DNA of 64,000 nt from Neophaeotheca triangularis (lineage: Eukaryota): contig BAAIJX010000032.1 in assembly GCA_054600435.1 (NCBI GenBank), positions 1 through 64,000 on the forward strand. The letters run 5' to 3'. Both the position numbers and the translations under genes were made by a program. The notes under the pieces were generated by a model that ran no database searches, was not told where the DNA came from, and saw only the letters and a program-made list of their open reading frames with translations. This document shows, piece after piece, positions 14,327 through 14,824 of this stretch (positions are counted from its first letter, which is position 1; every line of letters begins with the position of its first letter).

Positions 14327-14824
14327 ATGTCCCGCTCGAAACAAAACCGCCTTCGTCTTGCTTAAGAGATTCAACGCAACGGTCACCTAGTTCCGTTCCC
14401 TTGTGATCGCTGTTTTCTTTCCGGCCACGACTATATCGCTATAGAGAGTTCTTCTAGACTGAAATGTTCGGAGTGTGTTCGTTAGGGCAAGGCGTACGTC
14501 AACCTGTCGTGGGCTTCCCTAGATCGTACTCGGGAGGAGTACTAGAAAAAGGTTGATAAGGATAAGGAGGAGTTAGCTCGGATCATGGCTCGGTTGATGC
14601 GTAACAAGAAGATTCTTCGTCAGGCAGAGGAGCGTGCCCGTCGCAAGGCCGAGTGCCTTATGTCGGAGATGGACGCATCGGGAGAGCTAGAGTCGGAGGA
14701 CTGTCCTGCTACGGATGCGACCGTGGGTCTTTCTCCTGCTGTCTGGTCGTCGCTGGACTTCATTAACAACGCGACCGACCCTTTCTTGCCTAGCGATACT
14801 GTCGTAACAGCTTCTGGCAGTTGA
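14327..14824 (+). pseudogene. Antisense accessory ORF of element 1 (165 codons): Zn(II)2Cys6-like N-terminus plus predicted coiled coil and acidic tail
   Basis: ATG at 14327 is in frame with ORF 14585-14824. Three internal stops are TAA/TAG (CAA/CAG by RIP). C26-D-R-C29-x6-Y36(TAT)-x10-C47-S-E-C50-x6-Y57(TAC). Confidence 0.75.

Follow-up and report, generated by a model that had tools for sequence, protein, structure and literature searches.

The fungal antisense gene brtn was reportedly described by Zhao et al. in 2011 (Virology 417:248). It belongs to the Boty-like Gypsy elements of Botrytis cinerea and Sclerotinia, retrotransposons with long terminal repeats (LTRs) where it lies between pol and the 3' LTR, as it is cited in passages of PMC8365987, PMC7264820, PMC4227169, and PMC5987419. 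The DNA analysed here, positions 1 to 64,000 of contig BAAIJX010000032.1 of Neophaeotheca triangularis (assembly GCA_054600435.1; this whole stretch is called the window below), carries a Ty3/Gypsy chromovirus with an open reading frame (ORF) in the corresponding place, on the strand opposite to pol, with the pol stop on one side and the 3' LTR on the other. The two cases are alike in that a fungal Ty3/Gypsy chromovirus harbors an extra antisense gene between pol and the 3' LTR, a likeness of position as described for brtn. They differ in their hosts, which are Leotiomycetes for brtn, whereas the named members of the present family come from Dothideomycetes and lichen fungi; no Botrytis or Sclerotinia name appeared among the family members in the cluster look-up. 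The passages that cite brtn make no mention of a zinc cluster. The initial annotation of this DNA had noted that extra third ORFs are reported in some fungal Gypsy elements; it needs correcting in that an antisense gene at this very position was already published, to judge from the same passages.

In plants, GENE23 of the element Grande is, according to the title of Gomez-Orte et al. (2013), reportedly transcribed from its own promoter. In the passages of PMC7264820 that treat the subject, GENE23 is named together with RIRE2, Retand ORF4, and PvRetro13 ORF2 among the plant antisense aORFs located between pol and the 3' LTR, its product is given as nuclear, and such aORFs are likened to retroviral antisense genes. 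Antisense ORFs of this placement have been on record for years, in plants as in Boty, and the same passages state that their function is not known (PMC7264820). The plant genes resemble the present family in position, orientation, and conservation within element families; they differ in belonging to non-chromovirus lineages and in having other domains (SMC, transposase 28) or none, and the comparison is drawn by description only. Among retroviral antisense genes, HBZ of human T-cell leukemia virus type 1 (HTLV-1) encodes a bZIP factor. The antisense promoter of HTLV lies within its 3' LTR, according to the part of PMC7264820 concerned. HBZ is a small nuclear regulator that dimerizes and is encoded by the minus strand of a retroelement at its 3' end, as the protein proposed here would be; it differs in being a bZIP protein instead of a zinc-cluster protein and in having its promoter in the LTR, whereas here a TATA-like motif lies in the internal region. 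By analogy, this resemblance may point to a possible working mode, not to common ancestry.

The kind of gene is already known, and what appears to be new is the reading of its fold, the breadth of the family, and the promoter and hairpin module upstream of it. Searches of the full-text literature outside bioRxiv supplements and subscription journals found no zinc-cluster reading of a retrotransposon antisense ORF, and looking up terms in Muszewska et al. 2011 (PMC3248453) turned up neither antisense genes nor extra ORFs. Four features of the present family render its function directly testable, namely its large size, purifying selection, a recognizable layout, and a promoter-like module. Because Pfam misses the family, its members are annotated as "hypothetical protein" in fungi and may pass for host genes.

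A conserved accessory gene under purifying selection

Comparison of the window ORF with its relatives shows that the antisense ORFs form a family of real protein-coding accessory genes that is under purifying selection and keeps its position in related elements. A read-through translation of the window frame, with X at the stops, matched 124 proteins at E<=0.01 among 185 candidates. Its best homologue, at E 3.5e-63 and 69% identity, marks the frame as a gene and not a chance opening, and most matches are intact proteins of 155-180 aa. When 1.84 billion cluster representatives were scanned exhaustively with phmmer, the family grew to 250 clusters (at 50% identity) with E<=0.001, 104 of them at E<=1e-10. 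Named members occur in the Dothideomycetes Cercospora kikuchii, Elsinoe australis, E. fawcettii, Hortaea werneckii, Sporormia fimetaria, and Verruconis gallopava and in the lichen fungi Xanthoria steineri and Variospora aurantia, and matches in the ESM Atlas are Ascomycota clusters without names or Pfam families. Frames stay intact among members with just 27-70% identity. None of the six cysteines of the predicted zinc-cluster-like segment varies among the 42 full-length members that are most distant; in an alignment of 118 members, five never vary and at least 90% of the members have the sixth. Of the 118 full-length members, 117 show the complete six-Cys pattern (127 of 264 proteins when fragments are included), with a gap between Cys3 and Cys4 that ranges from 7 to 13 residues across the family. 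A profile built from the 42 most distant members yielded 4 matches only. No form fused to a larger protein was found at E<=0.001 among 4363 candidates of greater length, which is weak evidence. One 407-aa protein filed under Quercus suber (P0172) aligns with the query over two separate segments and probably reflects either fungal DNA within a plant assembly or a copy that was duplicated or fused.

The genomic setting is conserved too. A scan of metagenome contigs gave 46 related loci, and among the 24 whose contig continues for 900 nt or more downstream of the match, 22 have an integrase on the opposite strand within 1.3 kb. The other two (L045 and L046) each rest on a marginal 28-residue match and are probably ordinary zinc clusters. 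Among loci with two intact frames, 12 show a tail-to-tail overlap of 41-113 nt between the ORF and pol; four further loci have overlaps of 4, 201, -22, and -212 nt. The conservation in sister elements on which the initial annotation had made its claim depend is thus borne out in both place and orientation. No poly(A) tails were found at the ends of 12 short related contigs. Five contigs of about 6.5-8.4 kb (L008, L009, L018, L020, and L038) have pieces of pol at each end, with the antisense gene in between; their appearance is that of circularly permuted or tandem sequences, and possible explanations are a collapsed multi-copy assembly, tandem elements, or circular forms.

Selection was measured on 22 intact ORFs, which form 231 pairs; those with a proportion of synonymous differences (pS) above 0.6 were left out as saturated. 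The 16 usable pairs (pS 0.05-0.6) gave Nei-Gojobori ratios of nonsynonymous to synonymous substitution (dN/dS) of 0.07-0.46 with a median of 0.27, and of 0.10-0.12 in the three least-diverged of them, so that the comparison across related elements proposed in the initial annotation came out as purifying selection. This result bears on two explanations that dispense with a protein. One is that the selected product is the antisense RNA, as a source of double-stranded RNA and small RNAs or through transcriptional interference, with the ORF incidental. Such a transcript would cover the 3' end of pol, and retroelement antisense transcripts can be non-coding regulators, as a passage of PMC7264820 has it; but the dN/dS values, the frames kept intact at 27-70% identity, and the invariant cysteines are unexpected for a non-coding RNA, and we regard this explanation as highly improbable. 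The other, that there is only a chance open frame or a conserved cis-acting 3' untranslated region and no gene, could appeal to the three stops and the lack of a Pfam match in the window copy. It is refuted by the strength of the best homology, the 250 clusters, the kept position, and the purifying selection, and the confident fold prediction described below also speaks against it, which leaves it with a negligible probability.

The window copy is an inactivated member of the family

The frame in the window starts with an ATG at 14327, which is 90 nt from the inner boundary of the 3' LTR, and ends with a TGA at 14822-14824, where it overlaps pol tail-to-tail over 35 nt. It is interrupted by a TAA at codon 13 (14363-14365) and by TAG at codons 53 (14483-14485) and 73 (14543-14545). 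Cysteines remain at codons 26, 29, 47, and 50, and tyrosines stand at codon 36 (TAT, 14432-14434) and codon 57 (TAC, 14495-14497). Cys stands at codon 36 in 26 of 27 aligned homologues and at codon 57 in every one of them, from which follows an ancestral spacing of C-x2-C-x6-C-x10-C-x2-C-x6-C. The window copy departs from the residue common to at least 70% of the homologues at 6 positions, and a single C>T or G>A change accounts for 6 of 6. These data agree with what the initial annotation had observed: the 165-codon frame that opens with an ATG and lies between the 3' LTR and pol, the confinement of its internal stops to TAA and TAG of the kind left by repeat-induced point mutation (RIP), the reading of both Tyr codons as mutated Cys codons, and the overlap of its end with the end of the pol chromodomain were all described correctly.

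The ancestry of the stops, which had been expected to be Gln throughout, is a mixed case. Gln is found at codon 73 in 11 of the 27 homologues and, more weakly, at codon 53 in 4, where Leu is the commoner residue (15 of 27); at codon 13 none of the 27 has Gln, and the residues there are Ser (9), Lys (7), and Ala (6), so that the expectation holds for codon 73, less well for codon 53, and not for codon 13. The window copy has no Pfam match, PF00172 included, and tblastn found no second copy of the ORF within the window. It makes no protein and is a dead, RIP-inactivated copy of a conserved gene.

Predicted structure of the intact protein

An AlphaFold2 model was made from the 118-sequence alignment, with the natural homologue P0002 as its first row. 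The full-length model has a mean predicted local distance difference test score (pLDDT) of 85.1, with helices at residues 4-19, 28-33, 49-54, and 63-119 and a tail of low confidence. Both short helices, 28-33 and 49-54, are predicted to begin at a CxxC. The N-terminal helix has a median net charge of +2 and the Cys segment one of +3; the long helix is neutral (0), and the tail is at -7. The intact protein of about 165-175 aa is thus predicted to consist of a basic helix, a six-Cys knot that has the spacing and shape of the Gal4 type, a helix of about 57 residues, and an acidic tail with a conserved Trp, a layout close to the helical segment followed by an acidic tail that had been read from the window alone. 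Two further cysteines lie outside the six-Cys knot, at codon 110 (14654-14656; Cys in 24 of 27 homologues), in a Cys-Leu pair near the end of the long helix, and at codon 126 (14702-14704; 26 of 27), within a DCPAAD motif. A bZIP-like reading of a conserved segment of the helix was dropped after inspection by eye, as no tool supported it.

Zn2Cys6 DNA-binding domains were the leading structural matches. In Foldseek searches they took ranks 1-11 with the full model and ranks 1-5 with a model of the domain alone (pLDDT 81.0), at E values of 0.32-5; the best were Ppr1 (E 0.32, probability 0.85) and Pho7 (E 0.34). The domain was folded alone because a VIA scan of the full model had been swamped by the long helix, with 730 chains at Z>=5, all of them generic helices. 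An unbiased VIA scan of 48,161 chains with the domain gave 21 chains at Z>=2, six of them Zn2Cys6 domains, including rank 1, Pho7 (Z 2.9, root-mean-square deviation (rmsd) 5.5 over 44 residues), and rank 2, Gal4 (Z 2.5, rmsd 2.0 over 36). Superpositions by VIA gave Z 2.4 for Leu3 (1.7 over 35), Z 2.8 for Pho7 (1.8 over 35), and Z 2.5 for Lac9 (1.9 over 33). When a domain profile was compared with the PDB, three sequences appeared at E<=10, all of them Zn2Cys6 proteins with a hidden Markov model (HMM) E of about 3, and the alignment to Ppr1 placed the six Cys in register; a profile of the full-length alignment reached LEU3 at E 0.23 and GAL4 at E 0.76 amid coiled-coil noise. Gal4-type domains have the consensus spacing C-x2-C-x6-C-x5..12-C-x2-C-x6..8-C. 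The family is like the Gal4-type domains (Gal4, Ppr1, Pho7, Leu3, Put3, and Hap1; PF00172) in its six-Cys spacing and, by these models, in its CxxC helices and in a helix that may pair two chains, and the zinc-cluster fold anticipated by the initial annotation is predicted as a zinc-cluster-like knot with Gal4-type domains at the top ranks, at scores that are non-significant.

Another Pfam family, DUF3716 (PF12511), gave matches at E<=0.05 for 3 of the 27 homologues. The best (P0041, 20.3 bits) is below the cut-off of 22 bits and aligns residues 16-60 with positions 4-48 of the 59-position profile, that is, the N-terminal helix and the start of the cluster. The DUF3716 proteins REP9-1 and REP9-2 sit on a class II transposon of Zymoseptoria tritici, as a passage of PMC8232023 states. 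They are likewise transposon-borne accessory proteins of a Dothideomycete and differ in that their carrier is a DNA transposon. The similarity in sequence is weak and may serve as a lead only.

A homodimer model was computed from two copies of residues 1-125 and four zinc ions, with the family alignment not among its inputs. The pair scored 0.44, whereas the best of 3 controls reached 0.00. The mark applied to such scores had been calibrated on a ligand-free set, where it was reached by 21 of 30 same-chain pairs and by 0 of 23 single chains, and in eukaryotes, where 17 of 29 pairs and 0 of 30 single chains reached it. Between runs, contacts agreed to at least 90%, and the pLDDT of the partner was at least 78. 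The contacts, such as 77-94, 73-98, and 87-87, have residue numbers that sum to about 171, and the coil in the model spans residues 66-108. The model supports the pairing of two chains through the long helix.

A conserved module upstream of the antisense gene

In the window and in about 30 related loci, the sequence upstream of the ATG is laid out in one common order: the LTR end (..CGTAACA), the CT-rich complement of the polypurine tract, an inverted repeat, a spacer, a TATA-like motif, and the ATG. The spacer between the inverted repeat and TATAAGC measures 15-35 nt, and the distance from the TATA-like motif to the ATG is about 36-49 nt. Across elements, the arms of the inverted repeat have at least ten different sequences, and yet their complementarity is kept around an invariant G-TCCT-C center. 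In 32 sequences, 80.7% of the cells of the 6-bp stem are paired, compared with 57.8 +/- 2.5 in shuffled sequences (0 of 500 as high) and 31-55% in controls slid along the alignment, and rows with a 3-nt loop, which are out of register, were scored as unpaired. The covariation score of the stem is 0.651, against 0.243 in shuffles (0 of 500), and 5 of the 6 pairs vary on both sides. G-U counts of 17 vs 10 are insufficient to decide which strand forms the hairpin. The hairpin could be an RNA or single-stranded DNA structure beside the polypurine tract, with a part in plus-strand priming, or an operator of the antisense gene.

The TATA-like motif recurs well above expectation: of 28 non-redundant loci, 11 contain ATAAGC and 10 contain TATAAG, while the commonest 6-mer of the shuffles averaged 4.3 loci and never exceeded 7 (n=500). 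The motif belongs to the internal region, outside the LTR, and is a candidate for the antisense gene's own core promoter. The suggestion in the initial annotation that the gene is driven from the 3' LTR is probably wrong in this detail, given that a conserved internal motif precedes the ATG by 36-49 nt. When the inner 250 bp of the LTR was compared across 22 loci, 9 had the palindromic E-box TCACGTGA and 9 had CTATATAC; these motifs are probably sites for host factors and the sense TATA box. CACGTG also stands just after the hairpin in one subclade (L006, L010, L014, and L018).

What the protein may do

The reading that we prefer, with a probability of roughly 0.55, is that the conserved antisense gene of this ascomycete chromovirus clade encodes an element-borne, dimeric zinc-cluster regulator. 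The gene would have a TATA-type promoter of its own, situated between the polypurine tract and the ATG, from which it is transcribed; the protein would enter the nucleus and act there as a dimeric zinc-cluster regulator. Its target may be the element's own LTR, the region near the polypurine tract, or host chromatin and transcription, in a manner analogous to that of retroviral antisense regulators.

Several results weigh against this reading. The fold matches are all statistically weak (Foldseek E>=0.32, VIA Z<=2.9, HMM E about 3). The profile check against PF00172 proposed in the initial annotation did not bear the claim out, in that the 21-bit cut-off of Pfam was reached by a single homologue of 27 (P0052, 21.4 bits); ten others score 14.2-18.9 bits, 16 of the 27 have no match at E<=0.05, and 8 of the 118 members match at E<=0.01. 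In Gal4-type proteins, basic residues between Cys2 and Cys3 touch DNA. Ppr1 has RLKKIK in this stretch, and 106 of 117 family members have at most one Lys or Arg there; since these residues are missing, the canonical DNA-reading surface is not conserved. The dimerization coils of Gal4-type proteins are parallel, and the coil modeled here is predicted to be antiparallel, which would place the two Cys knots at opposite ends. Lastly, a conserved CGG-N-CCG was not found in the inner 250 bp of the 22 LTRs, which decides nothing about binding. We use the label zinc-cluster-like because the spacing and the fold ranks fit, while the scores are non-significant and the basic run is missing. The knot is probably a divergent relative of the Gal4-type domain, as far as the models tell, with its DNA-reading surface altered or lost. 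Compared with Gal4-type proteins, the family has an extra basic helix before the cluster, a long helix predicted to pair antiparallel, a length of about 170 aa, and no middle homology region; it is also transposon-encoded, lacks the basic run between Cys2 and Cys3, and in 26 of 27 cases falls below the Pfam cut-off.

Some of the same observations would suit a real protein that does not read DNA, in which the zinc knot and the long helix serve as an adaptor in the retrotransposition cycle. Its partners would be the integrase or its chromodomain, Gag, or the hairpin, and its role would be the nuclear import of the pre-integration complex or plus-strand priming. The missing DNA-contact residues and the antiparallel pairing fit such an adaptor, as does the covarying hairpin, whose loop is invariant and which sits right between polypurine tract and gene, and retrotransposition or nuclear roles have been proposed for antisense aORFs in the passages of PMC7264820 concerned. 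On the other hand, a basic segment, a zinc cluster, a coil, and an acidic tail make up the layout of a small activator, two positions in the cluster's second half retain Arg or Lys (in 111 and 107 of 117 members), and nothing in the analysis ties the protein to integrase, Gag, or the hairpin. We judge an adaptor to be unlikely, if a serious contender. A more specific form of the preferred regulator reading draws on the analogy with HBZ. In it, a clade-wide, Gal4-like antisense regulator with a private TATA promoter would be the fungal counterpart of HBZ, and its dimer would recognize the hairpin or palindrome, or the LTR, so as to set sense transcription or counter silencing. If true, it would give antisense aORFs of LTR retrotransposons, long without explanation, a molecular function for the first time. 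This version is tentative and, taken as a whole, rather doubtful.

The carrier retrotransposon and its surroundings

The carrier is a complete but mutated Ty3/Gypsy chromovirus on the minus strand, identified as such by its LTR pair and target-site duplication together with its CCHC knuckle, reverse transcriptase (RT), RNase H, and terminal Chromo domain (Table 1). Its two LTRs differ at 8 of 443 positions, and every difference is a transition. The pieces of gag-pol match the Pfam families RVT_1, RT_RNaseH_2, and Chromo; the last (E 2.3e-15) lies at the very end, with the pol stop directly after it. A zf-CCHC match of 20.7 bits is slightly below its cut-off of 20.8. The integrase pieces have no Pfam match at 1e-3 and were assigned from their position and from tblastn to the intact pol genes of related loci.

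The RIP signature of the element is moderate, with a TpA/ApT index of 1.27 and a (CpA+TpG)/(ApC+GpT) index of 0.73, compared with 0.71-0.74 and 1.15-1.18 in genic DNA and 1.8-2.0 and 0.35-0.40 in the AT-rich flanks around the element. These flanks (12001-13793 and 20887-29000) have a G+C content of 0.37 and far heavier RIP than the element itself. An intact target-site duplication inside more heavily RIP-mutated, AT-rich DNA marks the element as a younger insertion in an old repeat graveyard.

Table 1. Features of the antisense gene, its carrier element, and the surrounding window.
Feature	Position	Strand	Remarks
Antisense accessory ORF, RIP-type pseudogene	14327-14824	+	165 codons, 3 in-frame stops
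Zinc-cluster-like segment, codons 26-57, C-x2-C-x6-(Y)-x10-C-x2-C-x6-(Y)	14402-14497	+	Both Tyr are Cys in homologues
Long helix (predicted), about codons 62-118	14510-14680	+	P0002 helix 63-119 transferred by alignment, approximate
Conserved motif DCPA(A/T)DA-VGLSPAVWS within acidic tail	14699-14752	+	From alignment
TATA-like motif TAAATAGC (TATAAGC in relatives)	14282-14289	+	45 nt 5' of ATG
Inverted repeat CGCTT-gtctt-AAGCG	14254-14268	.	Window copy of the covarying hairpin or palindrome
Polypurine tract	14237-14250	-	CT-rich on + strand, abuts LTR; same layout in related loci
Target-site duplication CTCTA (5 bp), left copy	13789-13793	.	Right copy at 20887-20891
3' LTR, 443 bp, TG...CA ends	13794-14236	-	Pairs with 5' LTR
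5' LTR, 443 bp, TG...CA ends	20444-20886	-	Pairs with 3' LTR
End of pol: chromodomain and stop (14790-14792)	14790-14891	-	Overlaps last 35 nt of antisense ORF
Rest of RIP-broken gag-pol: CCHC knuckle, RT, RNase H, integrase (by position)	14892-20443	-	
Host gene, DUF1295	5085-5972		
Host gene, C2H2 zinc finger	7253-8960		
Host gene, GNAT (Acetyltransf_8)	38893-40503		
Host gene, PX/PXB/DUF3818 protein	41631-44558		
Host gene, TPR protein	53176-54381		

Elsewhere in the window, an ORF of 1714 aa at 32840-37981 has no Pfam match at 1e-5. A second RIP-like block occupies 57000-64000, with a G+C content of 0.455 and a TpA/ApT index of 1.7.

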